A stretch of 32,000 bases of DNA from Candidatus Saccharimonadota bacterium (GCA_042852035.1 BAAFHK010000001.1:180001-212000), one strand, 5' to 3'; shown: positions 1 to 32,000, numbered from the stretch's first letter. The notes: generated from the letters alone by a model not told the origin. A program made the numbers and translations.

Positions 1-491
1 AAATTGCTGATGCAAATCACGAATGATATAATCCAAAATTGCTTGATATTGGATCTGGATGATGATTTCCTGGTATTCCTCTGAAGATAGTTATTCCAGA
101 CCTTAAAGTAACACTTCTTGATTCCGTCTGAAAGAAAGTGAAAGCTATGAATTTCTTTATCGAACAATTGTGACTTGAAAATATTGACGCCGTTCAGGAA
201 CGAGCGGAGGTTCTAGCAAAAGGCGGAAATCATAAAGAAAAATATGATTTTGTAGTGTCTCGAGCAACGGCATATATTACTGATATACTTGCATGGGCTC
301 TTCCATTTCTTAAAGCAGATGGAAAAATCATTCTTTATAAGATGCCCAGCGAAGATGAGATGAATGATCTTAAAAAAATTCTAAAAAAATTTTCTCTTAT
401 TCTTTCTTGAGAGCTTGATTATGCTGTAGCTGGCAAAGAAAGAATTATCCTCATTATACAAAGAGACCCCCATAGCGGGGGAGGGAGATAA
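1..491 (+). CDS. rsmG: 16S rRNA m7G527 methyltransferase RsmG (GidB), 5' end cut by window edge
   Basis: Read from nt 3 with TGA=Gly: ...LLDIGSGGGFPGIPLKIVIPDLKVTLLDSVGKKVKAMNFFIEQLGLENIDAVQERAE...YDFVVSRATAYITDILAWALPFLKADGKIILYKM.... The SAM-binding GxGxG loop is spelled gga tct gga TGA TGA (51-65). Stop TAA 489-491. Confidence 0.85.
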
Positions 492-530
492 TTTTTGGAT
501 ATCTACGGAGCGTTCGCTCCATTCAATATC

Positions 531-800
531 TCAAGAGCTACCTCGATTCGTCCTATATGTTTGAGCCTTTTCTAGGCCTGTTATAAGAAAGACGATTGCT
601 CCGATGATGATGCCTGGCAGGAACCAACCCACGTGAACCCATAATGGAAATTCATCTGGATCAGGTTGGGTAATTCTCGCAAACATCACAAGCAAGAAGA
701 TAAAAGCAGCAACAACCTCAAGAAGGAAGAACAACGCGAATGCTGTTCCCGATCCTGACCTGGATCTTATCCAAACAGGACTACCTCCCTTTTTTGCCAT
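531..800 (-). CDS. small two-helix membrane protein (89 aa to TGA 531-533; 139 aa to TAG at 381-383 if that TGA is read as Gly)
   Basis: ATG at 798-800 with GAGGA about 6 nt upstream. Two hydrophobic segments (FALFFLLEVVAAFIFLLVMF, WFLPGIIIGAIVFLITG). 9 Gly codons, none TGA. The next in-frame TAA/TAG on this strand is at 381-383, 110 nt inside convergent rsmG. Confidence 0.55.
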   Translation of the reverse strand: MAKKGGSPVWIRSRSGSGTAFALFFLLEVVAAFIFLLVMFARITQPDPDEFPLWVHVGWFLPGIIIGAIVFLITGLEKAQTYRTNRGSS

Positions 801-871
801 AAATTTTCCTCTTTCATAACTGATGGAGACATTTTTATTCTAATTAAATTTACAAAAAGTCAAAAATATAG

Positions 872-900
872 TTGCAAATCATAAATTTATGTGATAATAT
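872..900 (+). promoter_or_regulatory. sigma70-like promoter: -35 TTGCAA (872-877), 17-nt spacer, TG-extended -10 TAATAT (895-900)
   Basis: Hexamers read directly from the sequence; sits 33 nt upstream of the ATG at 933. Confidence 0.45.
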
Positions 901-932
901 ATATTTACATTAATTTTCTAACACATACACAT

Positions 933-1055
933 ATGCAGAAACACTTTGCAGAGTTCGAGGCAAAACACAATATTCGCCCATATACTCTTGTTCTTCTTGG
1001 ATTATTCGCTGTAACGAATAATGCATTGGCTGCCGCCCAGCTCGTACAATTCTAA
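933..1055 (+). CDS. 40-aa hypothetical small protein with hydrophobic C-terminal half
   Basis: ATG 933, TAA 1053-1055: MQKHFAEFEAKHNIRPYTLVLLGLFAVTNNALAAAQLVQF. Bracketed by its own promoter-like hexamers and a strong hairpin terminator. No homology recognised. Confidence 0.4.
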   Translation: MQKHFAEFEAKHNIRPYTLVLLGLFAVTNNALAAAQLVQF

Positions 1056-1067
1056 CATCTTGATATT

Positions 1068-1100
1068 AAAAATCCCCTTGTAATAATAGGGGATTTTTTT
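1068..1100 (+). terminator. rho-independent terminator
   Basis: Stem AATCCCC (1071-1077) / GGGGATT (1089-1095) followed by a T-run to 1100. Confidence 0.75.
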
Positions 1101-1233
1101 GTTTGACACAGCTTATTATGTTATATTTTATATTTACTTATAAAACAAAAAATTTATATCGCAATATATATTTTGTGACTTGAAATTTACAATGTGCTAG
1201 TATTGAGGGGTATACATCCATACCAATACGCAT

Positions 1234-4200
1234 ATGCAAATCTGTTTTTCACCTCATAAATTCTTGAGGAAAGCAATATCTTCGGTACTCTTAGTTACTT
1301 TTTCAATCTCGTCCTTGCATCCAGTCTTTGCAGATTGAGAATGATTTCAATTTTATTCTACTGTCCTTAGGACGGCAGGAGTTATTGATAGGGACTATAT
1401 TTCAACAGCAGTAGCTACAAGCCGAATGGATGCGGTTCGTATAGCTGTTGGTATCTGATGATGGCCAAATGGATGTAGTGCTACTCCATCTCTTTCTTGT
1501 GATATTGAGTCAGTTGCACGATCAAGGGGACTGATTACAAGCGGACTTGAAAATATTAACCTCGGTCGCGTAATTAGGGCAAATGCTATCCGATTGGTTC
1601 TTCAGGCTCGAAAAATAAATCCATCTCAGAATCAGAGTTGATTTAAGGATGTGGATGGAAAACTTTCCAACTCGTATATAGGCTATATTGCAAAAGCTCG
1701 AGAGATAGGCTGTATTCAAACGGCTGAAAATTTTCGACCATTTGATCCAGTAACGGAAGGGGAGTATGCTAAGATGGCTGTATGCGCCATAGATGATAGT
1801 GAAAAGAATGGCACATTCAGCTCGGCACCAAATATAGCTCCTGCAACAAATCCAGTTGTATCATCACCTCAAAATGGAGCGGTCTATTATGTAGGATGAG
1901 GTTGAGGTTCTAGTACTACAATCATTAATAATGTTTATTCATCTTCAGGATTACTCCAAGATTTTACCTCTACTGGGGTAGCGAATTTTAATAATGTTAA
2001 CTTCTCTTGAAATGTGAGTTTTATTGGTCTTCCCAGTATGCCTCTTACGTTTGGATCTCTGCTTTATGGAAATAATTTAAATATTGCTACGGAGTTGCTC
2101 GGTTGATCAACAGGACAAGTTCTTAGTATGGCTAATGGTGTGCCAACTTGGGTAAGTATCGGCGCCCTTGGTTCTGCGACAGGATTGGTCTCATCAGTTT
2201 TTGGACGTTCGGGTGATATACTCTCCATGACGGGGGATTATTTATCAGATCAGATTATAGAATGATGAACAAATCTTTATTTTACTGATTCTCGAGCTCA
2301 GAATGCTCTTTCCTGAACGGTATCAACGATAAACACAACTCTTACGAATCTAACAAATGCAGTCAATGTGCTTTCGGGGGTTGTTGCAAGTTCTACCTGA
2401 ACGAATTATCAGCCTCAAATCGATACACTTTCTGGCCAAATTACTCATCTCAATAATCAGATTGTTATTTTTGCAGCTGCCCTTGCTCCGGTAATGCTTA
2501 CAGTGAATACATTCTCAGGAACTGTTTCACAGAATACTGCTGATATTGCGAGTCTTTCTTGAAAGGTTCTTGCACTCTCATGAGTTCTATCATCTCTTTC
2601 TGGTTCCGTCGATGTTCTTAGAAATGCTGTCGATAGCCTTTCCGGAGATCTTTCTACAACTAATGTGCTTGTTGCCAAAAATAGTGCAGATATATTTACG
2701 CTTTCTTGAAGAATAAATAGTAATACTATCTGACTCAACAGTCTCTCTGGTGCAGTTGAATTAATTGCTTCTGATGTTTCAATACTTCAGTCACAAGTGA
2801 GTGCTCTCCAATCTCAAGCACATGATGCAGTTACTCTTGGTAGCTCAAATGGATTGACGCTTTTAGGGCAACAACTCTCCCTTAATCTTGCCTCTTCAAC
2901 CTCGACTGGGGCACTTTCTGCATCTGATTGGAATACTTTCAATAATAAGATTGATTTTATATCACTCAGTGCAACAGGAGGTATTACCTACGATAATATT
3001 TCTGGTCTTTTTGGATGGAATGGAACAACATCTCTTGTTCCAGAATGATCTAACCTCTACTGGACTCAAAATAGATTCGATACAGCATTCTGATTGAAAA
3101 CTACTGATAATCTCAACGAGGGAGTATCCAATCTTTATTTTACAAACTCTCGAGCCCAAAATGCTCTTTCAGGGGCGATAAATAGCCTCTCAGGAAACCT
3201 TATTCTTACGAGCTCAAATCTTTCAACTCTCACATCTCAAGTTACATTGCTTTCATGGGGAATTATTGCTGTTGATACTGCTATCTGATCTCTTTCTGGT
3301 CAAGTAAATACAAATACGAATCATATAGCTTCACTTTCTGGTAATTTAGCAACCCTTAATACGTCACTATCAAGTCTCTCAGGAAATCTTTCAGTTCTTA
3401 GTAGCTCATTTTTAAGTCTTTCTGGAACGGTTGCACAAAATTTAGTTAACATTAACTCTCTTTCTTGATGACTCAACCTCACAAATGATTCCTTAAATAC
3501 TCTTTCTGGAACAATTATTAGTCTTTCTGGAGTAGTATCGTCTCTCTCGAATCAGCTCCAAAACCTTGGTAATGAGTTAAATAATCTTTCATGATCTGTG
3601 CTTTCTACGAATGCAAACCTTTCATCACTTTCATGAGTGGTAAATAGCATTTCTGGAAATCTCCTTGCACTTTCAAATTCGGTAAATAGTCTTTCGGGAA
3701 CAGTTCAAAATGTTATAGCTAGTGTTGTTTGATTATCTGGTTCTCTCGCTAACACCAACTCAAGTCTTAATACTCTTTCTGGTACAGTTTCAAGTAATTT
3801 TGCTACTCTTTCATGAAATCTTCTCACAACAAATAACATTATCTCTTCTCTCTCATGAGTTGTAAGTACTCTTTCGAGCAATCTTTATTCACTTTCGGGT
3901 GTTGTAGCTCAAAATACCATTGATATATCATCACTTTCATGAAATCTTTCGCTTACGAATTCTCGACTACTTTCACTTTCTTGAGTGGTGGCCCAAAATT
4001 CTCTTAGTATAAACTCTCTCTCAGGAAATCTCAATACCACCAATACAAACCTGGGTACTACCAATGCAACTGTAGCTTCTCTCTCAGGAAAGCTCAACAC
4101 TACCAATTCCTATCTTGCTACCGCAACAGGAAACATCAGTACTCTTACAAGTAATCTTGCAACTACCAATTCCTATCTTGCTACCGCAACAGGAAACATC

Positions 4201-7200
4201 AGTACTCTCACGACAAATCTTAATACTACCAATGCAACTGTAGCTTCTCTCTCAGGAGTAGTAAATACAAAGATATCTCTCACATCACTCTCTGCAAACT
4301 GACCTCTCACATATAACAATACAAATGGAGTGTTTGCGATATCTCTTGCAAACTCTACAACTACTGGTGCTCTCTCTGCTACAGATTGGAATACCTTCAA
4401 CAACAAACTCAACCTCTCTTCACTCCTCACTGGATTTGTTGCTGGATCATGAACGGTAACTGCTACAGATTCTCTCTTAGGTGCTCTTCAAAAACTCCAA
4501 GGAACCAATACAGCACAAGATACCAATATTGGTGCTCTCACAACAAACCTTGCAACCACGAATGCAACTGTAAACTCCCTCTCAGGAGTAGTAAATACAA
4601 AGATATCTCTCACATCACTCTCTGTAACTGGCTGATTCCTAACGTATAGTACTTGAACTTGAATATTCGGAACTAACTTTGCAGCTCTCTCTTGATCATA
4701 TTGGGCCCTCTGAGGTAATCCAGTTACATCAGTTCAAAATATCGGTACTACTACAAATTTTGATTTAGCATTTATTACGAACAATACTGAGTGGATGAGA
4801 CTTTCTACTGGATGAGTTCTGGGTCTTCGTACAACAGCAACAAACACACTTGCTTGATTTAATACGAATGCACTTGAATTTTGGGATAATGACGGACTTC
4901 ACTCTGATTTTACGCAGCGAGTAGCCTGAGGAGGATGGTGAACTTATAATATTCTTGCTCAGTGATGAACTATAGCATTACCAACTATTGTTGCTGCAGA
5001 ATCAACAGTTTGAGAATATACTTATGGATGATACGACTGAAGCGCATTTCGTCTCTTAGCTAGGGTTTCTGCTCAAGTGGATGGTACACCAGGACTAAAT
5101 AGTATGCCATGACGACTCGTCTTTAGTACTACGCCTTCGGGTTCCACTACACCACTAGAAAGAATGAGGATTACCAATGCGGGAAATATTGGTATCGGCG
5201 TAACAACAACAACGGCAAAATTTGATATTGCTGATAGTACCATTTCTACATGAGTACTTATGAAGCTTACAAGTGCTTGAATAACTGGTACATGATATGC
5301 ACTTCAGGTGATTGGTAGTGGCTCACGAAATCTTCTAAGAATTGGACAAAATGGAACAGATCCTCTTGATATGGAACGAGTTACTATTGGTCAGTGAGGC
5401 GTCTCTTCCGCAAAACCAGAGTGACTTGCACGTGATCAGCTCTATGTATTTGGTCGCATAAATTCAAGCTGGAATATGTTCTGGGATGACTTTATGGTTC
5501 GAAGAAATAATGCAGTTCAAACTAATGATGGGAATTTTAACGGAAGCCTCTATTTCGATGATGTAACTGGTGGTGGCGCTGCTGTTGGTTGGCAAGTCGA
5601 TGTTGTATCAAGCTTAGGAGTTTCTTGAATCGCTAGACTCAACACCCAAACTACAGGAGCATGATTCAATTCTTGGCTTATGTCATCTTCTAATGTGACT
5701 CAGCGGTCGCTTAATCCAGTATTTGAAGCTCGAATACTCGGAACAAATACTGCAAACCATATGATTATGGCTTGATTCTCAAACGGTGTCGTATGATGAA
5801 CATGGACAGCAGATGCAACATATAGTGCATTAACAAATGGAGCATTCTTCCGTAAAAATGCCGCCACTGGGGTGTGGTCAACCGTAACAAGAGCTTGATG
5901 AGTGGAAACCGTGAATAATACGACAATGTCAACAAATGTGTATCGTACACTCAGGATTGAACTGAATAATACAGCTGGAACAGCATCATTCTATATTGAT
6001 GGAGTGCTACAGTTTACTCACGCACTTAATGTTCCTGCAGCTACAACAGTAATGTGATATGGTGTAGGTACATCTATGACTGTAGCGACAGCTGGGCTAA
6101 CAGTAGATATTGATTACATCCGAGTATGGTCTGATGATCCACCTGATACCGCTCTAACAATAAATACAAGCCCTACATTAAGTGCCTCATACGTTACACC
6201 TTATAAAATTGAAGATTCATTTGAATTTAAAAATGCTCAATCAATTATACTTTCTTTATGAAATATAATTTCATCAACTTGATCGTTTGATTCTACAAAA
6301 AATCTTACATGAGATAATGCTATGAGCGCTGAAGATACTGGTAATTATTTTGCTCGAACAATTAAGACGGCTCTTGAATCACTCACATGATCAAATACAA
6401 ATACTACAGTTGATGCTAAGGTAGTAAATACCGAGAAACTTTGTATCGAATGAAACTGTTATCAAAGTGGCGAAATTGTTACAGGCGATATGTTAAGATG
6501 AGCACTGAGTAACATTACACCAGTTGTAAATAATTATTCAACTACTGTGGTTACAGAATCTGCCACGTCTTGATCAGATCAAGTTCAATCTCCTTTATCA
6601 CAAGAAGATCAGAGTGTGCTAGATATGCTTCGAGCATCAGTTGATTCACTCTTCGTAGAAATTCGAACAGTCTTTACTGATTTAGTTACATTTACTCGAG
6701 CGGTTATCTTTGAGAGTATTGTTACATTTAAGGATAAGGTGATTTTTGAAGCTCGTGTTACCTTCTCTGATCCAGATATGGCATGAGTCGCGACTATTGG
6801 CGCAGGATCAAAGACAGTTCATGTTCATTTTGATAGGCCTTATTCTGTAAAGCCAATCGTAACGATTGCTTCTACAGGTCATTTCAAGCTTTGAACCCTT
6901 AAGAATTTGACCACAAATGGATTTGATATAGAGGTGGCAACAAGTACTGAAACTCCACTTTGATTTAATTGGATTGCACTTGAGGTAAGGGGAGCGGGGA
7001 ACACTCTATCAATCTCAACAGTTTCAGATTCGCAAGATCAGGAACTAACAGATACTCCTCTAGTAAATCCTCAAGAAGAAAGCTCTGATATCTCCTCTCA
7101 AACAGGATCTGTAAATACGGGAGATGGAGTAGAGTGATCTTGAAATACAGATTCTTGATTATTATCACAGCCTGTAGATGAAACTTCCAATTGAGCAACA

Positions 7201-7362
7201 TCATTACCAGATACATCTACCTGAAGTGGGGAAGTGCTCTCAGAATCAGTAGATACAACACAATCACCAGCAGTTACTCCTTCAGAAATCCAAGTCGAAA
7301 CATCAACAGGAGAGAGTATTCCGGTTGAACCTCCGGTAGATACCGTATCATGAGAAATATAA
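1234..7362 (+). CDS. giant (2042 aa) secreted repeat-rich surface/fibre protein: signal peptide, SLH-like segment, LSGNL-type repeat rod, LamG/jelly-roll-like domain, acidic S/T/E/P tail
   Basis: - One frame-1 ORF under code 25. About 75 in-frame TGA and no TAA/TAG by my reading.
- Track fragments 1651-1899, 2797-3048, 3094-3288, 3985-4302 and 6076-6261 are all in this frame, and each ends at TGA.
- N-terminus MQICFSPHKFLRKAISSVLLVTFSISSLHPVFA.
- SLH-like FKDVDGKLSNSYIGYIAKAREIGCIQTAENFRPFDPVTEGEYAKMAV.
- About 2.4 kb of LSGxL/LSGxV...N..L periodic repeats.
- Two TTGALSA(S/T)DWNTFNNK modules.
- YRTLRIELNNTAGTASFYIDGVLQF...LTVDIDYIRVW near 5940-6130.
- TAA 7360-7362 followed by a terminator. 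Confidence 0.85.
4099..4224 (+). repeat. 63-bp (21-codon) tandem duplication inside the giant gene
   Basis: Copies at 4099-4161 and 4162-4224. The first 46 nt are identical (actaccaattcctatcttgctaccgcaacaggaaacatcagtactct), then a few substitutions. Encodes TTNSYLATATGNISTLT(S/T)NL(A/N). Confidence 0.9.
4249..4624 (+). repeat. dispersed exact 46-bp repeat pair inside the giant gene (4249-4294 and 4579-4624), 330 bp apart
   Basis: ctctcaggagtagtaaatacaaagatatctctcacatcactctctg occurs identically twice. The flanking aatgcaactgta is also shared (4231-4242 / 4561-4572). Confidence 0.9.
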
Positions 7363-8017: not shown

Positions 8018-8093
8018 GCGGGTGTAGCTCAATGGCTAGAGTCTCTGCCTTCCAAGCAGACTGTTGTGGGTTCGAGTCCCATCGCCCGCTCCA
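8018..8093 (+). tRNA. tRNA-Gly(UCC): tRNA-Gly (anticodon UCC), CCA encoded
   Basis: Manual cloverleaf: acceptor GCGGGTG/CGCCCGC, anticodon stem TCTGC/GCAGA, loop C-T-TCC-A-A, T-loop TTCGAGT, 3' TCCA. Confidence 0.9.
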
Positions 8094-8134
8094 TATTGGA
8101 ATTCCTCTACAATCCAGGAATTTTTTCTTTATAC

Positions 8135-8211
8135 GGGCGTATAGCTCAGCTGGTTAGAGCGCAGCACTGATAATGCTGAGGTCCCTGGTTCAAGTCCAGG
8201 TACGCCCACCA
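8135..8211 (+). tRNA. tRNA-Ile(GAU): tRNA-Ile (anticodon GAU), CCA encoded
   Basis: Acceptor GGGCGTA/TACGCCC, anticodon stem CAGCA/TGCTG, loop C-T-GAT-A-A, T-loop TTCAAGT. Confidence 0.9.
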
Positions 8212-8223
8212 TTTGTTTTTTTT

Positions 8224-8300
8224 CGGAGACTGGCGCAATTGGCTAGCGCACATGCTTTGGGAGCATGGGGTTGCGAGTTCGAGTCTCGCGTCTCCGACCA
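8224..8300 (+). tRNA. tRNA-Pro(UGG): tRNA-Pro (anticodon UGG), CCA encoded
   Basis: Acceptor CGGAGAC/GTCTCCG, anticodon stem CATGC/GCATG, loop T-T-TGG-G-A, T-loop TTCGAGT. Confidence 0.9.
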
Positions 8301-8355
8301 TTTGGTTTCTTAGATTCGTTTCCCTAGATCGCCCTTGCAATGCAAGAATAATTTT

Positions 8356-8430
8356 GGCGCTATCGTCTAGTGGTTAGGACAGCGGGTTTTCATCCCGTAA
8401 ACCGGAGTTCGATTCTCCGTAGCGCTACCA
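8356..8430 (+). tRNA. tRNA-Glu(UUC): tRNA-Glu (anticodon UUC), CCA encoded
   Basis: Acceptor GGCGCTA/TAGCGCT (G1-U72), Glu-type short D arm GTCT..GGAC, anticodon stem GCGGG/CCCGT, loop T-T-TTC-A-T, T-loop TTCGATT. Confidence 0.85.
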
Positions 8431-21417: not shown

Positions 21418-21425
21418 CATTTGTA

Positions 21426-23279: not shown

Positions 23280-23303
23280 AGAAAGAGTGTAAAAAGTAAA
23301 GTG

Positions 23304-23331
23304 ATTATCTTTATTTTATATCGTATTTCAA
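23304..23331 (-). promoter_or_regulatory. promoter of dsbB-MFS: -35 TTGAAA (rc of 23326-23331), 16-nt spacer, -10 GATAAT (rc of 23304-23309)
   Basis: Hexamers read on the minus strand, 25 nt upstream of the ATG at 23279. Confidence 0.5.
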
Positions 23332-23361
23332 TTTATATAATGAAAGTGAATGAAAAATCAT

Positions 23362-23718
23362 CTAAATTCACGGTATATGGAGTATTTTCCCCATCTCCTT
23401 CCCCTTCGCGAGCTCATCCACGAGCTTATCGAGGTAGCGGATTTCCTTCATGAGTCCATCTTCCATGTCCTGAATTTTGTATCCACAGATTGTACCCGTG
23501 ATGAGAGTGCGAGCAGGATTGAGGTTTGCTTCCCCGAAAAAGGTCTCGAAGTCGACTTTTTCATCGAGTACCTTCTCGAGTCACGCTGCATCATATCCCG
23601 TGAGCCACTCGATGACTTCATCGAGTTCAGCTTTCGTCCGTCACTTGCGTTCCACTTTCGTGATATAGAGTGGGTAGACGGTGGCAAAGGGTATGTGGAA
23701 GATCTTGGTGTTTTGCAT
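23362..23718 (-). CDS. DUF2200 family protein (118 aa)
   Basis: MQNTKIFHIPFATVYPLYITKVERKGRTKAELDEVIEWLTGYDAAGLEKVL...ETFFGEANLNPARTLITGTICGYKIQDMEDGLMKEIRYLDKLVDELAKGK matches my recollection of the DUF2200 family. The antisense 132-aa track ORF is rejected. Confidence 0.75.
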
Positions 23719-23722
23719 AGAT

Positions 23723-24121
23723 CTAGTCACTACTTACTTCTATACTAAATCCTCCCGTAGACATTCGTTTCATATCGAGGACATCACCATATTCGGCCAT
23801 GGCATCAGGATTTTCCTGGAATTTCTCATTCCAATGAGCCATCACTTTTTTGTTCACTTCGTCACGGTGCTCCTTCGACTCGTACTCGATATAGGAGAAC
23901 CAGACGGTTTCATCGTCTTTGAGATTCACGAGTGTGCCGAATGGGAGTGATTCCATACCTTCTTCCTGAGGTCCAGAGATATCATGCCCCATACATTCTC
24001 GGTAGGAGAGAGCTCCGAACTTCATCCATACATTGCATCCATCGGTGGCCATTTTTCGGTATCTCTCGACTTTATCTTTCGGGATAACGAGGACAAAGGC
24101 ATCTATATAGGTAGATTTCAT
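23723..24121 (-). CDS. DUF1428 family protein (132 aa)
   Basis: MKSTYIDAFVLVIPKDKVERYRKMATDGCNVWMKFGALSYRECMGHDI... is the typical DUF1428 N-terminus. TAG stop at 23723-23725. Confidence 0.75.
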   Translation of the reverse strand: MKSTYIDAFVLVIPKDKVERYRKMATDGCNVWMKFGALSYRECMGHDISGPQEEGMESLPFGTLVNLKDDETVWFSYIEYESKEHRDEVNKKVMAHWNEKFQENPDAMAEYGDVLDMKRMSTGGFSIEVSSD

Positions 24122-24158
24122 AATAATAGATAAATTAATAATAGATTGTTTCACAAAC

Positions 24159-24566
24159 TTATTCTTTCGGCATTGCACTCGCATCCATCCAAAATGCTTC
24201 CCAGATATGACCATCGAGATCCTCGAAATCACGACCATACATAAATCCATGATCGTAAGCGTCTATTGTCTTCTGTCCGCCTGCTGTGATTGCCTTATCG
24301 AAAAAAGTATCGACCGCCTCACGAGAATCAAATTGGAGAGCATTCAGAACTTCGGTTGTCGTATGAGCATCGGATATAGTTTTTTTCCCGAGGAAGTTCG
24401 CACAAAATGCTGGAGTGAGAAGCATGACAGAGAGTGTATCATCCCAGATCATCGCAGAGGCATCATCATTCGAGAAGTCAGTATTCTTCGTAAATCCGAG
24501 AGCTTCATAGAATGCTGTCGCTTGCGGGAGATTGGTGACAGGGAGATTGATATAGAGTTGTGCCAT
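24159..24566 (-). CDS. VOC/glyoxalase-fold family protein (135 aa)
   Basis: MAQLYINLPVTNLPQATAFYEALGF...DHGFMYGRDFEDLDGHIWEAFWMD is the characteristic COG3607-like glyoxalase-fold pattern. Confidence 0.75.
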   Translation of the reverse strand: MAQLYINLPVTNLPQATAFYEALGFTKNTDFSNDDASAMIWDDTLSVMLLTPAFCANFLGKKTISDAHTTTEVLNALQFDSREAVDTFFDKAITAGGQKTIDAYDHGFMYGRDFEDLDGHIWEAFWMDASAMPKE

Positions 24567-24586
24567 AAAAAAATTATAAAATATTG

Positions 24587-24931
24587 TTATTCCGTAATAC
24601 GTTTTTGAATTATCTTTTCGATGAGGCTTTTTGGAATAGGTTTTTCTGGAGTAAAGTGCACTCCCGATTTGGTCCAAGTAAATCATTCTTCCTTGAGTTC
24701 TTTCTCGAAAAAAGAAAGCGTAGATCCAGAAAATGGAAAGAATGAGAGGTGATTTTTAAATTTCGCAAAGCCAGCAACACATTCTTTCCCAACGCGAAAA
24801 GCAGGCATCCCATAGGAGATGCATTCACTTGCATCAGGGAGGATTTCGAGGATTATTTTTCTGAGATTTTCGAGAGCTTTCCTTTCTTCACTCTTGTCGA
24901 TATTCTCGAGATATGTATCGATTTCACTCAT
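24587..24931 (-). CDS. DUF1801 (YdhG-like) domain protein (114 aa)
   Basis: MSEIDTYLENIDKSEERKALENLRKIILEILPDASECISYGMPAFRVGKECVAGFAKFKNHLSFFPFSG..., read through the TGA at 24683-24685 to TAA at 24587-24589. Confidence 0.75.
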
Positions 24932-24934
24932 AGA

Positions 24935-25351
24935 TTACATGGTGAGGAGGTATCCTGCGATGAGGAGCGAAAGGAGACGAGCAGAGCCTGAAACGGCTAC
25001 TTTTGTACACATCCATTTTTTTGCATCCCCTCCCCAGATTACGGTCGAAGTCATCGTCGTTACGATAAAGGAAAGCCATACCATAAATGCAGTCTGCATG
25101 CCAGAATACTCTGGGATGGCGCGGATAACGCATGCGAGTCCGATGATGATAAGCAGGGAAGCGATAAATTCAGTCGCGAGGAGCTTCCACATACCCTTCA
25201 TGGATTCTTTCATTTCTGCATCTGTGAATTTCTTTTCACCATGATGGATCTTCATCCAGAGTTTTCCGAAAATTGGACCATGCCAGACCGCGCCGATACC
25301 GAAACTCACAAGTGTAGAAATGATGATCATCGTCCAGTTAAGTCCTTGCAT
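24935..25351 (-). CDS. DUF1761 family membrane protein (138 aa)
   Basis: Intact ORF. LNWTMIIISTLVSFGIGAVWHGPIFGKLWMK... plus further TM helices. Confidence 0.7.
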   Translation of the reverse strand: MQGLNWTMIIISTLVSFGIGAVWHGPIFGKLWMKIHHGEKKFTDAEMKESMKGMWKLLATEFIASLLIIIGLACVIRAIPEYSGMQTAFMVWLSFIVTTMTSTVIWGGDAKKWMCTKVAVSGSARLLSLLIAGYLLTM

Positions 25352-25380
25352 AAGAAAAAAGTGAAAAAGTAAACTGTGGT

Positions 25381-25407
25381 ATTATACGACTTCTCACTCT
25401 TTTGCAA
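25381..25407 (-). promoter_or_regulatory. candidate promoter: -35 TTGCAA (25402-25407), 15-nt spacer, -10 TATAAT (rc of 25381-25386)
   Basis: Consensus -10 on the minus strand, 30 nt upstream of the ATG at 25351. The spacer is short. Confidence 0.45.
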
Positions 25408-25436
25408 ACCGATAACAGATGCATCGTATGATATAT

Positions 25437-25883
25437 TTAATTTTTGTACTCTCTTTCGTAATGTCTAATCCATTCTGTTGCATCCATTTTTTTCATAAGT
25501 TCACTAATAAGATGGTAGGGAATTTTTTCGATTTTTTTGAAACGAATACAGCTTTTTCCCATATCGAGCTTTCAGATATCGAGTTTTTTATATTCATCTT
25601 CCCACCATTTGAGGAGCGTTGAATCAGTATATATTCCCATGTGATAGAGGTGTATCCCATGTTTTTGATTGGCGAGAGCGACGAATGGAAGGGGGAGCTT
25701 TGGATTGCAGTGATATCCACTTGGATACTTCGAATGAGAGACAACATACCCAATCATGCCATAATTTTCACACTCATCGAATCCGAGTGGTGTGAGCGTA
25801 TCTCTGAGGATATCACGAATCCTTGTGAGTGCTTCACGTCTCTCAGAGGGGGTATTTGATATGTAAGTGTCAGAGAAGTTCAT
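25437..25883 (-). CDS. DUF1801 domain protein, long form (148 aa)
   Basis: MNFSDTYISNTPSERREALTRIRDIL...YGMIGYVVSHSKYPSGYHCNPKLPLPFVALANQKHGIHLYHMGIY...LDMGKSCIRFKKIEKIPYHLISELMKKM.... Read through the TGA at 25572-25574 to TAA at 25437-25439. Start 25883 chosen over 25910. Confidence 0.7.
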
Positions 25884-25896
25884 ATAGAAAAAGAGT

Positions 25897-26415
25897 TTAC
25901 ATGAGTTCACGAATTTTTCTTACCGTATTTACATTTCTCGCAGTCATTTTTCTATAGACTTTTGTTCCGATAAAGTCACGCATCTTGCTCTCTTGGTAGT
26001 GAGCCTTATCGATATGCCAGATGATGGCTCATGGCAGATAGGTGAGAGTATCGACGAGAGGATTTTGTTTGATTTCATTTAATGATTCTTTCGTATCAAC
26101 ATCTTTCCAGAGAAAGAGGATATCAGTTCTTTGTTCGCTATTATTCTGCCATTCACTTGGTATTTTTTCTACGAGATTTTCTATATACGATTGTGAGCGA
26201 ATAATCGTAGGAATTTCGAATCAAAACGTTTCACTAAGTTGTTTCTCAATCTTGCTAAAGTCATCATTTTTAGATTCAAAAATCATATTCCCACTATTGA
26301 TGTAGGTTGATACTTCCTCAAATCCCATCGCTTCAAAACAGGACTTGAGACGAGTCATCTCAACTTTTTTGTTTCAACCAACATTGATACCGCGAAGGAA
26401 GGCAACGTATTTCAT
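25897..26415 (-). CDS. DUF1697 family protein (172 aa)
   Basis: MKYVAFLRGINVGGNKKVEMTRLKSCFEAMGFEEVSTYINSGNMIF... is the canonical DUF1697 N-terminus, with TGA supplying the second Gly of GINVGG. TAA at 25897-25899. Confidence 0.8.
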
Positions 26416-26422
26416 GAAAAAA

Positions 26423-26863
26423 TTAGAGTGACTCTACATGCTTTTTAAAATTCGCTAGGATAGCACTCCATCCAGCAATCTGCATATCTTCTGGATGAAT
26501 CTCTTCTGCATCAAATACCTCAGTAACCTTCACGCCTTCTGGCGTTTCCTCGAATGTGACATCGACAACACGTCCTGCATCGAGAAAATATTCTTTCATC
26601 TCACCGAGGGTGTAGCTCATTGATTTCATAGGAGTGACTTCAGTGTACTTCGCCGTGAGGTCAAATCCAAAAGATCCATCGCGAGCCTCCATACGGGTCG
26701 TGAATATTCCAGCCACTACTGGTGATTCACCTCGAGCCCATGGGCAGTGCCAGGTTGCTTCATCAGCAAATCCCCAATGGATGATGTGTTCTGGATTCCA
26801 CATCGCATTCCATACAGTTTCGAGAGGAGCATTAACTACGATAGATACGGTAAGTTTAGGCAT
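26423..26863 (-). CDS. SRPBCC superfamily protein (AHSA1/Aha1-like domain, 146 aa)
   Basis: Intact ORF. MPKLTVSIVVNAPLETVWNAMWNPEHIIHWGFADE...FGFDLTAKYTEV.... Confidence 0.7.
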   Translation of the reverse strand: MPKLTVSIVVNAPLETVWNAMWNPEHIIHWGFADEATWHCPWARGESPVVAGIFTTRMEARDGSFGFDLTAKYTEVTPMKSMSYTLGEMKEYFLDAGRVVDVTFEETPEGVKVTEVFDAEEIHPEDMQIAGWSAILANFKKHVESL

Positions 26864-26872
26864 AATTAAAAT

Positions 26873-27706
26873 TTAGGATAAATATTCATATTCCCGCTTC
26901 GTTCAGCTTATTATTGTTTCTCGAGAAGCCTTGAAAGATTCGGGAAATGCAGTTTTTATTTGATTTAAAGGAATCTGTCATTTCAGAGCTGCCAAAAACA
27001 TTTTGGCTGCCTGATATTTTTGTAATTGGTATTTTATAAAATCAACATCATTAGCTTTTCTCATTGCTATATCAGATCTATCTTTTGTGTAAGGTTTTGA
27101 TACTTTTGAAATTAACAAGTCCCTTTCTGGGCTGAGTTCAATTGCAGATGTGTCAAGATTTGTAATTTCTGCAAGAAACATTTTAAAATCAAGCAATCGC
27201 TTATGAACGAGTCAGCTCCTATCTCCATTTTCCCTGTAACCATTTCTTGAGAAAGTTAAATCTAGTTTATTTTTTCTACAAAATAATACAAGAAAATCCT
27301 CGTTTGTTCTTCCTGCTCCATCGTGAGGCACATGACAGAGTGTGAGTAACATGCCAAATATGGTTAGATAGTCAAAAAAATCTCAATCAATAACTGTTTG
27401 ATCTAAGCACTCAAATACACTCCTATAAACTTCATGTAAGTAGAATGCTGGTAATAAGCTCATACTATCATGTTCTCGAACAGAAAGACAAGTATCGTGG
27501 TTGCGATGATACTCATCATTTCAGAAATCTAGAGCTTTTTCTTCGTTCAAGAAATGTATCTGGTGGAGGATATCATAGCATTTTACCATTGATAAACCAG
27601 ATTTTAGAAGACAATCAATAACACGTCTTCTTATGAAATCCGATATTTCAACTATGTAAGGCAGCGTATTTGGTGTGGCCAATTGGCTCGGTAGAAGAGT
27701 GTCCAT
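26873..27706 (-). CDS. 277-aa all-helical hypothetical protein with a degenerate Fic/Doc-like motif
   Basis: Joins track ORFs 27521-27724 and 26978-27196 through six in-frame TGA; I translated every triplet. HVPHDGAGRTNE (27299-27334) resembles the Fic core HxFx(D/E)GNGRxxR. AT-rich relative to the gene on its low-coordinate side. ATG at 27704-27706 (alternative TTG at 27724). Confidence 0.5.
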
Positions 27707-27770: not shown

Positions 27771-28358
27771 TTATCTCATGAGTTTTTCCCACCAATATTT
27801 TTTCTCAAGTCTGAATTTTTTCATAATCCAGATTCAGATAGCTGCATAAATGATTCCCATGATTGTTCCGATAATAACATCACTCGGATAGTGCATGCCG
27901 TTATGAACTCGAGAAAGTCACATAAGGAGTATAAGAAATATCCCAAAAGGAAGAAATCTTTTCTCGAAATAGGTGACAATTATTACGAGTAAAGTCGTAA
28001 ATGCCATATGGCTCGATGGAAAAGATGAATCTCGAAAAGCATGCCCAATAGCGAGTATGTCAGGGTGTATCGTCCACGGGCGAGGACGAAATATCCCGAT
28101 TTCTGAAAGAAGCATTTTGTAGATTCATTCGTTAACAAGATAACTCGTTATTCCTGAGATGATGAGAGCAAAAAGGAGTGGCTTCCAGAGTCGATGTTTT
28201 TTGTAGATCATGAATATGATAATCATGCCAAATGCTCCAATCATCAAGGCAATATTGCTCACATAAAAAGAGAATGCATCGAGCAAGGTTCCATCGAGAT
28301 TTTGGAGACTTTTTACGAGAGGGTATTCAAGGGAATCTAAGGTGACAAAGAAAGACAT
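27771..28358 (-). CDS. PAP2-family phosphatase (undecaprenyl-diphosphatase/PgpB-like, 195 aa)
   Basis: Motifs KxxxxxxRP (...IFRPRPW), FPSSH and SRVHNGMHYPSDV. Five hydrophobic helices. Joins track ORFs 28125-28358 and 27918-28115. Confidence 0.85.
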
Positions 28359-28373
28359 GGAAAAAATATTAAA

Positions 28374-28847
28374 TTATCATATTTCACGAGCATTCATGAG
28401 TCAGCAGGATTTTTTTCGAGAGAGAATTTCCACAAGTATATCACTTGATTTCGAAATAGTTCGTTGCACGCCCTCTATGTCATTCGAAGTAACTCACTCA
28501 AAAATATCTCAAAGTGCATGCTCATATGTAGGGGTAATTTTTCTGAGTGCATTTTGGGACTTTTGAGTGAGATGAAAGTGGATGACTCGTTTGTCATCAG
28601 GGTCAATGTTTCGTCAAATAAATCCGTGCTCCTCAAGATATTTAAGCTTTTTCGTCATATTTGGTTTAGTTCCGTAGGTTCATGCAAGGAGTTTTTTTGA
28701 GGTATCAATTCCTGTAGAAATTAGATAGAGTACCGCATACGTTTTTACGGTAAGTCCAACAGGAGTAAAGATAAAATCTCATGAGCTTTCGAGTAGGGCT
28801 ACAAATCGAAAAAGCTCATTGATGAGGTGTTGTTTCTCAAATCACAT
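28374..28847 (-). CDS. MarR-family transcriptional regulator (157 aa)
   Basis: ...TVKTYAVLYLISTGIDTSKKLLAGTYGTKPNMTKKLKYLEEHGFIGRNIDPDDKRVIHFHLTQKSQNAL... shows the winged-HTH and DxxDxR wing pattern. Nine in-frame TGA. Confidence 0.75.
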
Positions 28848-28855
28848 ACAGGGCA

Positions 28856-29407
28856 CTATACAAGTTTTTCGAGTGCTTTCAAGTGAGCCTCCTTATCTGT
28901 TTTGGGATCTTCCATATTTCCAAATACGGTAAATGATTTTTGCTTGATGCCACAAAAACTAATACGATTCAGGTTCCAGAGGAGCTGGATATGGAGAAAG
29001 AGCTTATAGAAGAAGGCAGGTCATCCTGAGGTGGCGATAATTCGTGCAGTTTTTCCTTTGAGGAGCCCTACGGGTTTTCCATTCTCATAGCGAAAGGCAA
29101 AACCAGAACGAAAGTTACAGTCGATAAAGTTTTTCAAAATTGCAGGAGCATCTCCCCACCAAATAGGAAAAATGAAAATGAGCTCATTTGCGCTGAGTAT
29201 TTTCTCTTGAATTTTTTTTGTAGTGGCATCATCGCCGAATGCTTTTGGATCCTCGAACCGGAGAAAGTCTTGAGTGAGCTCCGTTTTATAGAGATCAAAG
29301 ATTTCTACACTATCTCATTTTTCTTTCGAGAGAGTAGCAATCTTCTCGGCAATTTTGTGGGTAAAGCCATTACTACTTGGATGAGCGGTCACGATGAGTT
29401 TATGCAT
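28856..29407 (-). CDS. flavodoxin-like-fold NAD(P)H-dependent oxidoreductase (Flavodoxin_2/NQO-like, 183 aa)
   Basis: MHKLIVTAHPSSNGFTHKIAEKI...ANELIFIFPIWWGDAPAILKNFIDC...KGKTARIIATSGG.... Confidence 0.75.
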
Positions 29408-29409
29408 AA

Positions 29410-29436
29410 AAAATAGTTAACTTAGTAAACTATTTT
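29410..29436. promoter_or_regulatory. 9-bp inverted repeat (candidate MarR operator and/or weak terminator)
   Basis: AAAATAGTT (29410-29418), 9-nt spacer, AACTATTTT (29428-29436), immediately upstream of the oxidoreductase-marR-pap2 genes. Confidence 0.35.
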
Positions 29437-29465
29437 AGGATATCGATGGGAGGATAAAAAGCAAG

Positions 29466-30329
29466 TTATTTCTTTTTTTGTTGTATATAGTAAACTCCAT
29501 ATATCGTCAGCATGCTCCCGAAGATAAATCCGAGACTAATATGATCGCCAAAGAATATTGCTCCAGCAAAAATAGTAAAGATGAGTTGTACATACGAAGT
29601 AAATCCAACAAAAAATGGACTCGAAATCTTCATGAGTTTCTGAAGAAGGAAGTAGAACAAAACAGTTCCAACGAGACTAGCTGTGAGAATAGCAAATATA
29701 CCCAGAGTACTCAGATGTTCAATAGGATTGATTCCAGGGGTATACTTATAGTATCAGAAACCAATTGATGTTATGAGTCAGCCAATCATTCCTCAGATAA
29801 GGAGCTCACTGGCGCTAAAGTGGTATTTTTTGGTAAAAATGAGATAAGCACAATAAGAAATTACCGCGAGAAGAATATAGGTATTCCCGAGGAGTGATCC
29901 TACCGCAAGGCTCCCACCATAGATTTTTGGAAGAATGAATATAATGCTCGCTCAGAGAAGGGCTATGATAAGTCATATGATTTTTTGTTTTTCAATAGGC
30001 TCTTCGAGAAATATGTAAGACCCAATAAGAACCAAAACAGGAGTGAGAAGATATATGACTTGTGCAACACTGATATTCGTGAGTTCTATGCCGTAGGCAT
30101 AGAGGATACTATTGACACCGATTCCCATACAAATAACGATAAGGAGTCCTATATGTTTCCAGGAATATTTTCTGAGCTTCGGGAGGAGCGGAAGGATGGC
30201 TAGAGTTCCTATGAGGTAGCGGAAAATCGTGAGCATCCATGGAGAAATCTCTGTCAGAACAAATTTCGAACTAACGACTCAAAGAGTTCCGCAGATTCAG
30301 AGGGTGAGAAGAAGGAGAAGTTTATTCAT
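29466..30329 (-). CDS. EamA/DMT-family transporter (287 aa)
   Basis: Ten hydrophobic helices. Joins track ORFs 29973-30236 and 29466-29660. I checked every in-frame triplet over 29466-29975 and found no TAA/TAG. ATG at 30327-30329. Confidence 0.75.
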
Positions 30330-30756
30330 GACTCGTATAATGCTTAATCTCTTCTTCGAGTCGATCGAAATTTTCCTCATTTTTTTCTCTGAGGAATTCT
30401 TGGGCATTCTCGAAAAAGTTTATATCTTCAAATCTTGCTATCCATGTCATCTTAGTCTCATTTTTATTTATTTCTTCGATGAGTACTTCGAGTGTAAAGA
30501 TCGGTGCAACATCATGTTTCATGAGGATGTGATTGGTTTCGATTTTTTGAAACATCCATTCATTGTGATAGTCGTGCCCATCAGAGTGCATGGTAAAAAT
30601 CCACTTTCCTCACTCTCTAAAATCAAAAGAGTGAAAGGTGTTCGTATTTCATGCAGGTCCCCACCAACGCGCCAGTGATATCGGGTCAGAATACTTCGAA
30701 AAAATAGTCTTTGCGGAATAATGGAGAGTGCGAGAGGTAGTGAGGGCATTATTCAT
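30322..30756 (-). CDS. SRPBCC superfamily protein (START/AHSA1-like, 144 aa)
   Basis: MNNALTTSRTLHYSAKTIFSKYSDPISLARWWGPAGNTNTFHSFDFREGGKWIFTMHSDGHDYHNEWMFQKIE.... The stop overlaps the EamA start (ATGAATAA). Confidence 0.7.
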
Positions 30757-30765
30757 GGTTTATTA

Positions 30766-31344
30766 TTATGAATCTAAAAAATCTCAAGTTGATTTTACGC
30801 TAACGAACCTTCTGATGGCAAGCAAGGCTGCCTCATGATGTTCTTTTGATACCGTTCCACAAGCATCAGAAATAACGGTGGTAAGTATATCTCTATCATG
30901 AGCATCACGAGCTGTACTAGAAACTGCTAAATCGGTTGCAACACCAGTAATAATTATTTCTCAAATTCATTTTTCATCAAGATATTCTTCAAGTCAGGTT
31001 TTATAGAAGGCGCTTAACTGAGTTTTTGTGAAAGTTTTCTCATTTGGATTATATTTGAGTCCTTCTATAAAATCTACAGACCAAGTTCATTCTTGTAAAA
31101 TCTGAAGATCAGGTATCATTTTAAATCGAGGAGATACTTTTGAGCAGTTATCATAGTTTTCATGAAAGCCAATGTGAATCCATACAATTTCTTCTTTCTT
31201 TTTTCGAAATGAATCTATAAGCTTTCTCGTATTTTTTATTACTCAAAATTCCTCACAAAATCTTCCCATTCATTGTGGGGAGATTTTTCCTTCTGGATGA
31301 ACAAATTCATTGATAAAATCAATTACTAAAAGAGCTCTTTTCAT
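30766..31344 (-). CDS. isochorismatase/cysteine-hydrolase family protein (192 aa)
   Basis: MKRALLVIDFINEFVHPEG...IITGVATDLAVSSTARDAHDRDILTTVISDACG... (catalytic D, K and C layout). I checked all in-frame triplets and found no TAA/TAG. Confidence 0.75.
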
Positions 31345-31346
31345 AG

Positions 31347-31736
31347 TTAGTTATTAGGAAAATGTTCAACAATTAATTCGTTCCCACTTCTATCATAGTA
31401 GGTGCAAGTTCATGCCTTCATATCGAGTGTCCATTTTTCAACGCCACTTTCTGCGCAGTCTCGGCAGAAGGTCATATAATCAGTTCCACCATTTTGATGG
31501 AGCTTGAGTCTTTCGATAAAAAAATCTTTTTTAATATCGAGAGAGATAAGAAGAGGCTCATATTTTCATGGAGCATTGAGGGGATCAGGATTGCCAAAAT
31601 ATACCGCCCGCCCATCGGTCACGTAAACGTCGTATGCGGTGACTCACATCCTTGTAATCTCACGAGCATAGGCAGGGAAGTCAGCTCAGGATTTTACTTT
31701 CGCATGAGCATTGATGATATCAGGGAGGGTGAACAT
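31347..31736 (-). CDS. DUF1398 family protein (129 aa)
   Basis: MFTLPDIINAHAKVKSGADFPAYAREITRMGVTAYDVYVTDGRAVYFG...HQNGGTDYMTFCRDCAESGVEKWTLDMKAGTCTYYDRSGNELIVEHFP. Confidence 0.75.
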
Positions 31737-31739
31737 TGA

Positions 31740-32000
31740 TTATTTTGTTAGGAGGTATTCTCGGAGTTTTTCTATAGGTTTTATTTTGAGGTATACTTTT
31801 TTGTAGTCTTCTTCGGAGAGTTCAGAACGGATGGTCGTATATCACTCAGGGATAAAAATCCTATCCCATCCAAATCCATTATCTTTTCCTGGATGGTCTG
31901 ATATAGCCCCATTCATGCTTCATTCAAAATATTGGAGAGTATTCCCATCAAAATATCCATATGCACATCGGGCAACGGCTCCACGATTTTTACCATCGAG
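31740..32000 (-). CDS. Ham1/RdgB-like non-canonical purine NTP pyrophosphatase, C-terminal 86 aa (5' end outside window)
   Basis: ...GKDNGFGWDRIFIPEGYTTIRSELSEEDYKKV... resembles the ITPase GFGYDPIF block. TAA (rc) at 31740-31742. Confidence 0.5.

Follow-up and report, generated by a model that had tools for sequence, protein, structure and literature searches.

UGA reads as glycine under genetic code 25 in a 32-kb chromosomal segment, very probably from a Gracilibacteria-type bacterium

The window, meaning the whole 32-kb stretch of DNA that was analyzed, has a GC content of 40% and is thus AT-leaning. Its curated map holds 35 protein genes and 4 tRNAs and covers 91.7% of its length. The features are given below with coordinates, strand and the domains or signals by which they were recognized.

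3..491, plus strand: rsmG (GidB), 5'-truncated; Pfam PF02527 residues 10-127 matched across 4 TGA; 6 in-frame TGA; stop TAA.
531..800, minus strand: 89-codon ORF with two transmembrane segments; apparent end at TGA 531-533.
1234..7362, plus strand: giant surface-type protein of 2042 aa with LSG-containing repeats; 75 in-frame TGA; stop TAA; terminator at 7367-7385.
8018..8430, plus strand: tRNA cluster Gly(UCC)-Ile(GAU)-Pro(UGG)-Glu(UUC), by ARAGORN and Rfam.
9104..10624, minus strand: membrane spermidine-synthase-like protein; Pfam PF01564; 12 in-frame TGA; stop TAA followed by a terminator.
10682..11338, plus strand: SGNH/GDSL (TesA-like) lipoprotein; Pfam PF13472; 11 in-frame TGA.
11340..11963, plus strand: YfiH/Cu-oxidase_4 family protein; Pfam PF02578; 4 in-frame TGA.
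11967..12629, plus strand: ABC ATPase of the YbbA/LolD/MacB type; 8 in-frame TGA.
12632..15010, plus strand: YbbP-like ABC permease; 17 in-frame TGA; 45 homologues at 42-63% identity.
15546..16271, plus strand: CcdA/DsbD-type membrane protein; Pfam PF13386; 1 TGA.
17244..18653, plus strand: MsrA-thioredoxin-MsrB fusion; Pfam PMSR and SelR; 3 in-frame TGA.
18697..20004, minus strand: SLH-domain protein; Pfam PF00395; 5 in-frame TGA; stop TAG followed by a terminator.
20828..21340, plus strand: GC-rich (57%) lipoprotein gene; no internal TGA; conserved C-terminus ...VLVIR, then TGA 21338-21340.
21349..21417, plus strand: two conserved hairpins after the lipoprotein TGA; hairpin 1 at 21349-21377, bidirectional intrinsic terminator at 21388-21416.
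21426..22727, minus strand: MFS transporter, 52% GC; Pfam PF07690; 5 in-frame TGA; stop TAA.
22728..27706, minus strand: run of small genes (DsbB-like, DUF2200, DUF1428, glyoxalase, DUF1761, DUF1801, DUF1697, AHSA1, hypothetical), by Pfam; low TGA use, 0-5 per gene.
27771..32000, minus strand: PAP2, MarR, flavodoxin-like, EamA, AHSA1, isochorismatase, DUF1398 and a truncated Ham1 ITPase, by Pfam; 35 in-frame TGA together.

Under the standard code (table 11), the window breaks into 114 ORFs of 60 aa or more, none exceeding 296-297 codons, and stop-to-stop ORFs of at least 200 codons occupy a fraction of 0.15. In 24 control loci that use the standard code and have 31-46% GC, this fraction is 0.63-0.89. 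When TGA was read as sense, the longest ORF grew from 297 to 2053 codons and the number of ORFs of at least 200 codons rose from 7 to 34. Reading TAG or TAA as sense over the whole window gave no gain, with maxima of 297 and 305 codons, respectively. The 35 genes contain 205 in-frame TGA codons and not one in-frame TAA or TAG; the TGA density is 22 per 1000 codons, and nearly every gene contributes. TAA ends 23 genes and TAG 10, together 33 of the 35, and about 25 strong intrinsic terminators were found 0-30 nt past a TAA or TAG in the window and its relatives. Pfam domains continue uninterrupted across TGA in more than 25 genes. These counts confirm the first-pass annotation, which had described a standard-code ORF track shattered by TGA and had proposed re-calling the genes under alternative codes: coding density increases with TGA as sense only. 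Near-complete coding density, also claimed there, was found as well, and the accompanying estimate of about 38 genes is replaced by that of the curated map.

In the giant gene, frame 1 from 1201 to 7362 carries 76 in-frame TGA codons and is free of TAA and TAG. Counted from the ATG at 1234 there are 75, in agreement with an earlier hand count of about 75. With the triplet frequencies of the window itself, 2053 codons would lack both TAA and TAG with a probability of about 3e-23. The codon that follows Leu-Ser is TGA in 12 cases, GGA in 11, GGT in 7, GGG in 2 and GGC in 1; the repeat glycine had been described as spelled interchangeably by the first four, and all of them occur. The N-terminal region of the protein matches the SLH domain weakly. 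Shattered table-11 ORFs of this kind resemble a decaying genome or an error-rich assembly, and the in-frame stops might be attributed to pseudogenization, sequencing or assembly error in a standard-code organism. However, TGA accounts for each of the 205 interruptions and TAA or TAG for none, no gene is frameshifted, the interruptions lie on conserved glycines, and the pattern recurs, often at the same codon, in independent JGI, ENA, Logan and GenBank assemblies, so that we give this explanation next to no credence.

The amino acid was read from homologous columns, TGA being masked as X in the comparisons with solved structures. Standard-code homologues show Gly at a frequency of 0.55-0.66 in the pooled columns at TGA sites, against a background of 0.08, and Trp at 0. 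In an orthologue table built from related recoded contigs, the cells at the window's TGA sites (n = 72) hold Gly in 56% and TGA in 23%, or 79% together. The window's GGN sites show the same pattern (Gly 69%, TGA 6%), and its TGG sites are occupied by Trp in 84% of cells and by TGA in about none. TGA makes up 28% of the glycine codons in the window, where GGA alone is commoner.

Individual sites give the same picture. In rsmG, TGA 63-65 corresponds to the invariant Gly of GxGxG in four of four solved RsmG structures. Four TGA codons of the ABC ATPase fall on glycines invariant in solved structures, including those of Walker A (12087-12089) and of the LSGGQ signature (12387-12389), and the remaining four are Gly in the close orthologue of locus L059. 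For the SGNH lipoprotein, 8 of the 10 aligned TGA sites are Gly-dominated in solved homologues, among them sites in block I GDSLTAG, block II NAGISG and GxND..RG. The TGA within vHSxWRG of the YfiH-family protein aligns with the invariant Gly of HAGWRG. Standard-code homologues have Gly at the TGA of the CcdA/DsbD-type protein (5 of 5) and at the one in GGCFWC of MsrA (17421-17423; 75 of 75). The isochorismatase has TGA on the glycines of KGTW and rrGI of its solved homologues, and in the MFS gene TGA interchanges with GGN among the orthologues in L082, L091, L085 and L092. About one-third of the TGA sites lie in variable columns, where distant homologues have E, D or N and close orthologues have Gly or TGA.

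The TGA positions named in the first-pass annotation (12087-12089, 12387-12389, 60-65, 10820-10822, 10826-10828 and 17421-17423) proved exact, and the TGA in GINVGx of DUF1697 is present as claimed. Its statement that TGA sits on invariant glycines holds for the motif sites; it does not extend to every TGA, many of the columns being variable. In the RsmG motif GSGxxFPG, for instance, the second TGA is on the invariant Gly, and the column of the first is Ala or Pro in solved homologues. Two further points, the proposed tabulation of residues aligned with TGA (Gly-enriched at 55-66% versus 8%, Trp 0%) and the observation that Trp is still written TGG, came out as predicted. The interpretation of UGA as glycine under code 25 is thus supported by each of the proposed checks that was run.

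Code 4, in which UGA encodes tryptophan, is used by Mycoplasmatales, Entomoplasmatales and some insect endosymbionts. It restores ORF continuity equally well, and many public gene calls for relatives of the window were made with it and show W at TGA positions. The 45 permease homologues accordingly contain G/W mixtures at the window's TGA columns; the W in these proteins arises where public gene calls applied code 4 to TGA. Such mixtures in database proteins are confined to the recoded clade, and the named NCBI-sourced permease homologues are low in Trp (0.010-0.011). In the window and its relatives, every conserved Trp column is written TGG, and the window's TGG never exchanges with TGA in orthologues, whereas GGN does. 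Since the TGG sites are the Trp-aligned ones and no TGA site is Trp-aligned in standard-code homologues, code 4 is ruled out by the column counts and is, in our assessment, extremely unlikely. Table 4 organisms (Mycoplasma/Spiroplasma and some endosymbionts) share with the window a UGA that has ceased to be a stop codon, presumably accompanied by the loss of RF2, but differ in the amino acid, TGA here being aligned with Gly and never with Trp.

UGA is also the selenocysteine codon, and stop-codon-recoded phages exist; in-frame sense UGA would equally be expected of a recoded phage, or of a standard-code organism with selenocysteine insertion or programmed read-through. As in bacterial selenocysteine recoding by UGA and a SECIS hairpin, the UGA at 21338 precedes a conserved hairpin. 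Against these readings, TGA occurs at 22 per 1000 codons in nearly every gene, genome-wide rather than site-specifically, and its sites align with Gly and not with Cys. The genes are cellular housekeeping genes in an order found in MAG contigs of up to 712 kb. Because hairpin 1 is also present 3' of a TAG-terminated homologue of the lipoprotein gene, it is not specific to UGA and not a SECIS element. Selenoprotein recoding is therefore ruled out, and this whole group of explanations is regarded as vanishingly improbable.

As no rRNA or ribosomal protein gene was found in the window, its placement rests on best hits and synteny. The closest named permease homologues are from 'Candidatus Gracilibacteria bacterium'. 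Gene order is common to the window and the recoded loci L007 (a Ca. Gracilibacteria MAG) and L059, and the four-tRNA cluster also occurs in these Gracilibacteria/Patescibacteria MAG loci. The 15-26 kb part has a gene order common to L082, L084, L085, L091 and L092, with the small-gene run 22728..27706 syntenic in L082, L084 and L091. Judged from protein similarity and conserved gene order, the relatives point to Gracilibacteria (BD1-5) MAGs as the closest. The best hits have 58-88% amino acid identity, and with proteins at most about 60-88% identical to anything retrieved, the organism is a species different from those in the searched collections.

The first-pass label of a Gracilibacteria/SR1-type recoding is upheld in its first half by the named relatives and synteny and not in its second. 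Absconditabacteria (SR1) likewise read UGA as Gly. According to Codetta, they also read CGA and CGG as Trp, and both codons are rare there (PMC8629427). In the window, by contrast, CGA is used 98 times (10.6 per 1000), more than any other Arg codon, and 73% of the cells aligned with it hold Arg, so that the additional CGA/CGG-to-Trp change is absent; CGG occurs 13 times (1.4 per 1000) and is matched by Arg or Lys. The extended recoding of the Absconditabacteria type is ruled out on these grounds, CGA being frequent and neither codon being Trp-aligned.

The window is thus very probably a piece of the chromosome of a Gracilibacteria (BD1-5)-type bacterium within the Patescibacteria/CPR, one that uses NCBI translation table 25. 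UGA is a sense codon for glycine, and UAA and UAG are the sole terminators; tryptophan is written only as UGG, while CGA and CGG stay Arg. The agreement with table 25 extends to TGA as a major Gly codon in AT-leaning DNA and to Gracilibacteria MAGs as nearest relatives; the code itself does not differ, and the one departure is a gene family that here ends at TGA. Codon meaning and stop-codon identity can be read directly from the alignments and gene ends, and the affiliation from homology and gene order. The decoding machinery, on the other hand, is predicted from the clade, because neither the window nor 13 related loci yielded a tRNA with anticodon UCA, and neither prfA nor prfB was present in the window or the related loci compared. 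UGA would be decoded by a tRNA-Gly with anticodon UCA, as reported in the clade (PMC8629427), and release factor 2 would be absent, as in BD1-5 genomes, which lack prfB (PMC6851277), so that RF1 alone would terminate. In Gracilibacteria, UGA as Gly has been validated by proteomics (PMC4032931, PMC6851277, PMC8629427).

The lipoprotein gene 20828-21340, and possibly the ORF 531-800, appear to end at TGA, which pure code 25 fails to explain. Across 7 homologues, the lipoprotein family has 126 GGN codons and no internal TGA. The codon past the last conserved residue is TGA in five lineages, exactly where one other homologue has TAA and another TAG, and in most of the 24 family members no more than a few residues separate the domain from the end of the protein. 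A TGA-read-through frame would pass through the two-hairpin terminator (21349-21417; MFE -34 kcal/mol, z = -4.5), both stems of which show compensatory changes across 7 homologous loci. The terminator at 21388-21416 also lies past the TAA of the convergent MFS gene. The layout at ORF 531-800 is similar, with the TGA 50 nt ahead of a terminator-like hairpin (481-467); under code 25 this ORF extends to 381, antisense into rsmG. No homologue of it was present in any locus compared, so it may not be a gene.

UGA might accordingly be mainly Gly and yet, at the ends of a few genes, have kept or recovered a role in termination or in non-stop messages, its meaning depending on context. We consider this unlikely. 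One family and one homologue-less ORF are all that show it among about 25 orthologue groups and some 30 terminators, and the five TGA lineages count as no more than about three independent ones. The missing internal TGA may merely mirror the GC-rich codon bias of the gene. Efficient termination at UGA would be intolerable for the 205 internal TGA codons, and we know of no mechanism for UGA termination without RF2, whose gene is reported absent from BD1-5 genomes (PMC6851277).

Genetic code 25 has been known since 2013, and its recoding was reportedly described by Campbell 2013, Rinke 2013 and Hanke 2014. The finding that UGA is glycine is real but already known and ordinary for the lineage; with the recoding a textbook case, the window extends the known set by one divergent member without bringing a new principle. 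In practice, neither table 11 nor table 4 gives a correct annotation of this contig: the former breaks the 35 genes into fragments, and the latter writes Trp for about 200 glycines, an error visibly widespread in the public proteins of the clade. The conserved gene ending at UGA is the sole potentially new point. If UGA does still end translation in a code-25 organism, this would inform both how the reassignment of a stop codon reaches completion and how non-stop messages are tolerated.

Under the standard bacterial code (table 11), the window (32,000 bp, 40.4% GC) contained 114 ORFs of 60 aa or more, the longest of 296-297 codons and lying on the strand opposite a real gene. ORFs running from stop to stop over 200 codons or more covered only 15% of it, compared with 63-89% (median 74%) in 24 standard-code control loci of 31-46% GC. 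When TGA was read as sense, the longest ORF had 2053 codons and 34 ORFs reached 200 codons or more, whereas reading TAG or TAA as sense left the ORF picture of the whole window unchanged (maximum 297 and 305 codons, respectively). The claim of the first-pass annotation that the ORFs are shattered by TGA was thus borne out, and all coordinates it named were correct on the sequence. Neither TAA nor TAG interrupts the giant frame (1201-7362), which holds 76 in-frame TGA (75 if the count starts with the ATG at 1234); from the window's own triplet frequencies, the probability of zero TAA/TAG across 2053 codons is about 3e-23.

A self-trained codon model, followed by refinement with Pfam and start codons, gave a set of 35 protein genes and 4 tRNAs (91.7% of the window). 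In the 35 genes, TGA occurs in frame 205 times and TAA or TAG never; 23 genes end at TAA and 10 at TAG, and two ORFs apparently end at TGA. TGA codons are spanned by the Pfam domains GidB, Spermine_synth, Lipase_GDSL_2, Cu-oxidase_4, ABC_tran, HTH_5, DsbD_2, Thioredoxin, PMSR and SelR, SLH, MFS_1, DsbB, DUF2200, DUF1801, DUF1697, DUF1398, PAP2, MarR, Flavodoxin_2, EamA, Isochorismatase and Ham1. A count over 32 genes (9266 codons) gave 202 TGA, or 21.8 per 1000; TGA makes up 28% of Gly codons, among which GGA alone is commoner.

To keep the queries from biasing the comparison with solved structures, TGA was entered in them as X.

Residues of solved homologues at window TGA sites
ABC ATPase, 8 sites: 4 invariant Gly, 1 Gly or Glu, 3 variable
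RsmG, GSGxxFPG: first X Ala or Pro, second X invariant Gly
Isochorismatase: Gly of KGTW and of rrGI
SGNH hydrolase: Gly-dominated at 8 of 10 aligned sites, blocks I and II among them
YfiH: Gly of HAGWRG

The four invariant sites of the ABC ATPase are the Gly preceding Walker A, that of Walker A itself, the Gly after it and that of LSGGQ. In RsmG, where both TGA codons of GSGGGFPG had been placed on invariant glycines, this held for the second only. A scan of genome contigs with MsrAB retrieved mostly standard-code bacteria, because the gene is widely shared, and only four recoded relatives (L002, L007, L009 and L059); the standard-code bacteria were used as controls and supplied homologues for the column counts. 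The TGA site in GGCFWC of MsrA was Gly in 75/75 standard-code homologues and that of CcdA in 5/5. Pooled over TGA sites, Gly made up 55% of aligned residues in standard-code homologues from genomes, and 66% in the MsrAB family with the sites of the four recoded relatives included, against a background of 7.9%; Trp was 0%. These values uphold the claim that TGA falls on conserved glycines. At sites matching Glu, Asp or Asn in distant homologues, the close orthologue L059 has Gly or TGA. The cleanest test of the meaning of UGA is the orthologue codon table over nine recoded relatives.

Orthologue residues or codons at window codons, nine recoded relatives
Window TGA, 72 sites: Gly 56%, TGA 23%
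Window GGN, 260 sites: Gly 69%, TGA 6%
Window TGG, 74 sites: Trp 84%, TGA about 0

The repeated LSG unit of the giant gene is spelled interchangeably, as had been noticed, the codon next to Leu-Ser being TGA 12, GGA 11, GGT 7, GGG 2 and GGC 1 times. ORF continuity, Gly-aligned TGA columns and TGA/GGN interchange together support UGA as glycine, the code 25 reading.

One gene end does not fit this reading. The ORF at 20828-21340 (+) encodes a lipoprotein (signal sequence MIRRLIALFLIALLAAC) whose conserved sequence closes with ...VLVIR, followed by TGA and then, in order, by a conserved hairpin, an A-rich linker and a strong intrinsic terminator at 21388-21416; the MFE of this 3' region is -34 kcal/mol (z = -4.5). 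The code-25 frame continues for 140 further codons through the terminator and antisense into the convergent MFS gene. Homologues were found only in syntenic recoded contigs or as fragments too short for classifying.

Lipoprotein gene and homologues, with the codon past the last conserved residue
Window 20828-21417 (+), gene with 3' region: TGA
L082 9563-10160: TGA
L084 10019-10622: TGA
L085 10001-10590: TGA
L093 78-705: TGA
L091 3072-3690: TAA
L092 8019-8650: TAG

All seven genes are GC-rich (54-59%; host loci 40-53%), and their internal Gly codons are 126 GGN and 0 TGA. Recent transfer from a standard-code donor was not supported, since the contigs that carry the close full-length homologues are recoded and syntenic, and high GC marks the gene in each of the seven lineages. 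A profile searched against 1.8 billion representative proteins found 24 members, most of them with the domain a few residues or less from the C-terminus. The two-hairpin region carries compensatory changes among the homologues and likewise follows the TAG stop, and is therefore not UGA-specific; on this ground, and with no Rfam match at E ≤ 0.5, the hairpin was rejected as a SECIS element or known RNA.

An all-against-all test of TGA against orthologue stops was dropped because it was swamped by conserved off-frame ORFs (29/29 candidates were junk frames), and the stop question was examined instead with curated orthologue alignments and a terminator survey. Over all recoded loci, about 25 terminators sit 0-30 nt past TAA or TAG, and only the lipoprotein family and the ORF at 531-800 have one within the read-through frame. 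That UGA keeps a residual stop-like role at the lipoprotein gene end would agree with this placement; it is nonetheless improbable, the five TGA lineages representing only about three independent ones and the family being one among about 25 orthologue groups. In L082 (10076-10950) and L085 (10508-11390), the read-through frame, free of TAA and TAG, runs on into the following (DUF1554-like) lipoprotein gene, which shares its frame; in L091, with its TAA stop, the gene that follows sits in another frame. Most probably, UGA is read as glycine here too, the product being either extended or made from a rescued non-stop message. The apparent ending of this family at UGA is one unexplained observation under code 25.

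The second apparent TGA end belongs to an 89-codon two-TM ORF (window 381-839, -), which reaches TGA at 531-533, with a terminator-like hairpin (481-467) 50 nt on. Under code 25 it would extend 110 nt into the 3' end of rsmG on the opposite strand, and since no homologue was found in the related loci examined, it may not be a gene. The MarR gene (28374-28847, -) ends ...REI-TGA-TAA, with a further TGA eight codons upstream, and the DUF2200 gene (23362-23718, -) ends ...HIP-TGA-ATT-TAG, exceeding its orthologues by 3-4 residues. These terminal TGA codons may be relics of TGA stops that are now read through to TAA or TAG.

Other features of the window were also recorded. The product of the giant gene (1234-7362, +; 2042 aa) has an N-terminal signal-like segment, a weak SLH match, a long central region of degenerate ~14-residue units with LSG at the end, and a non-repetitive C-terminal part; the gene contains one 63-nt tandem duplication (4099-4233), and among its Gly codons TGA leads with 75 uses, ahead of GGA with 62. 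The protein probably forms a fibre at the cell surface or associated with the S-layer. At 10682-15010 (+), genes for a TesA-like SGNH esterase, YfiH, a YbbA-like ABC ATPase and a YbbP-like permease follow one another, with best solved matches including YbbA (9ge6) and TesA (9ge8) of the same entry set; the TesA/YbbAP association seems to be retained in this CPR bacterium. A thiol/oxidative-repair cluster (15067-23279) comprises an ArsR-type regulator, CcdA/DsbD, a thioredoxin lipoprotein, an MsrA-Trx-MsrB triple fusion that carries a membrane anchor at its N-terminus, and a DsbB-like protein, which suggests extracytoplasmic methionine-sulfoxide repair. The segment 15546-27706 is of higher GC (42-52%) and TGA-poor: five genes (20044-20499, DUF1428, glyoxalase, DUF1761 and AHSA1 at 26423-26863) lack TGA, and in most of its other genes TGA supplies 0-0.15 of the Gly codons, versus 0.2-0.6 elsewhere. 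Judged by its synteny in five recoded relatives, the segment is native and not recently imported.

The closest homologues of the permease share 42-63% identity with it, the named ones being 'Candidatus Gracilibacteria bacterium'. TGA also shatters the ORFs of L002, L007 (a Ca. Gracilibacteria MAG), L009 and L059 (a 712-kb Patescibacteria contig), and the window shares its gene order with L007 and L059, including the tRNA cluster Gly(UCC)-Ile-Pro-Glu. The recoded contigs L082 (JGI), L084 and L085 (ENA), and L091 and L092 (Logan) are syntenic with 15-26 kb of the window at 45-89% amino-acid identity. The 32-kb window contains no rRNA or ribosomal protein genes. CGA is the commonest Arg codon (98 uses; CGG 13). 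CGA and CGG align with Arg or Lys, so their additional reassignment was rejected, and the change to Trp inferred for Absconditabacteria (PMC8629427) is absent from the window. This absence favours Gracilibacteria over SR1; of the label "Gracilibacteria/SR1-type", only the former part is supported.

No tRNA(UCA), prfA or prfB was found within the 32-kb window or the related loci examined; exact-sequence look-ups of the TGA-free AHSA1 protein (26423-26863) and of the lipoprotein yielded only contigs of 1.7 kb and 0.8 kb. The clade is reported to have tRNA-Gly(UCA) (PMC8629427) and to possess prfA but lack prfB (PMC6851277), and proteomic proof for UGA as glycine is likewise reported (PMC4032931). 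From clade membership we infer that the organism of the window would use this decoding mechanism. Its code is NCBI table 25, with no difference from the description. Table 25 was first described in 2013. The finding is correct and the phenomenon already known, table 25 now being in routine use for the Gracilibacteria lineage (e.g. PMC11452946).

Code 4 (UGA as Trp) was rejected, as the first-pass annotation had argued from the retention of TGG for Trp: conserved Trp columns carry TGG, and TGG/TGA interchange was never seen. Among the permease homologues P0001-P0045, those taken from Logan, JGI and ENA show G/W mixtures exactly at window TGA columns (e.g. G 17 / W 25), which are TGA translated as Trp under code 4 in public gene calls; named NCBI-sourced homologues have a low Trp content (0.010-0.011). 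UGA as glycine in the window is useful for annotation, and the Gracilibacteria-clade gene calls in Logan, JGI and ENA, being largely made under code 4, introduce systematic Trp-for-Gly mistranslation into large protein collections.
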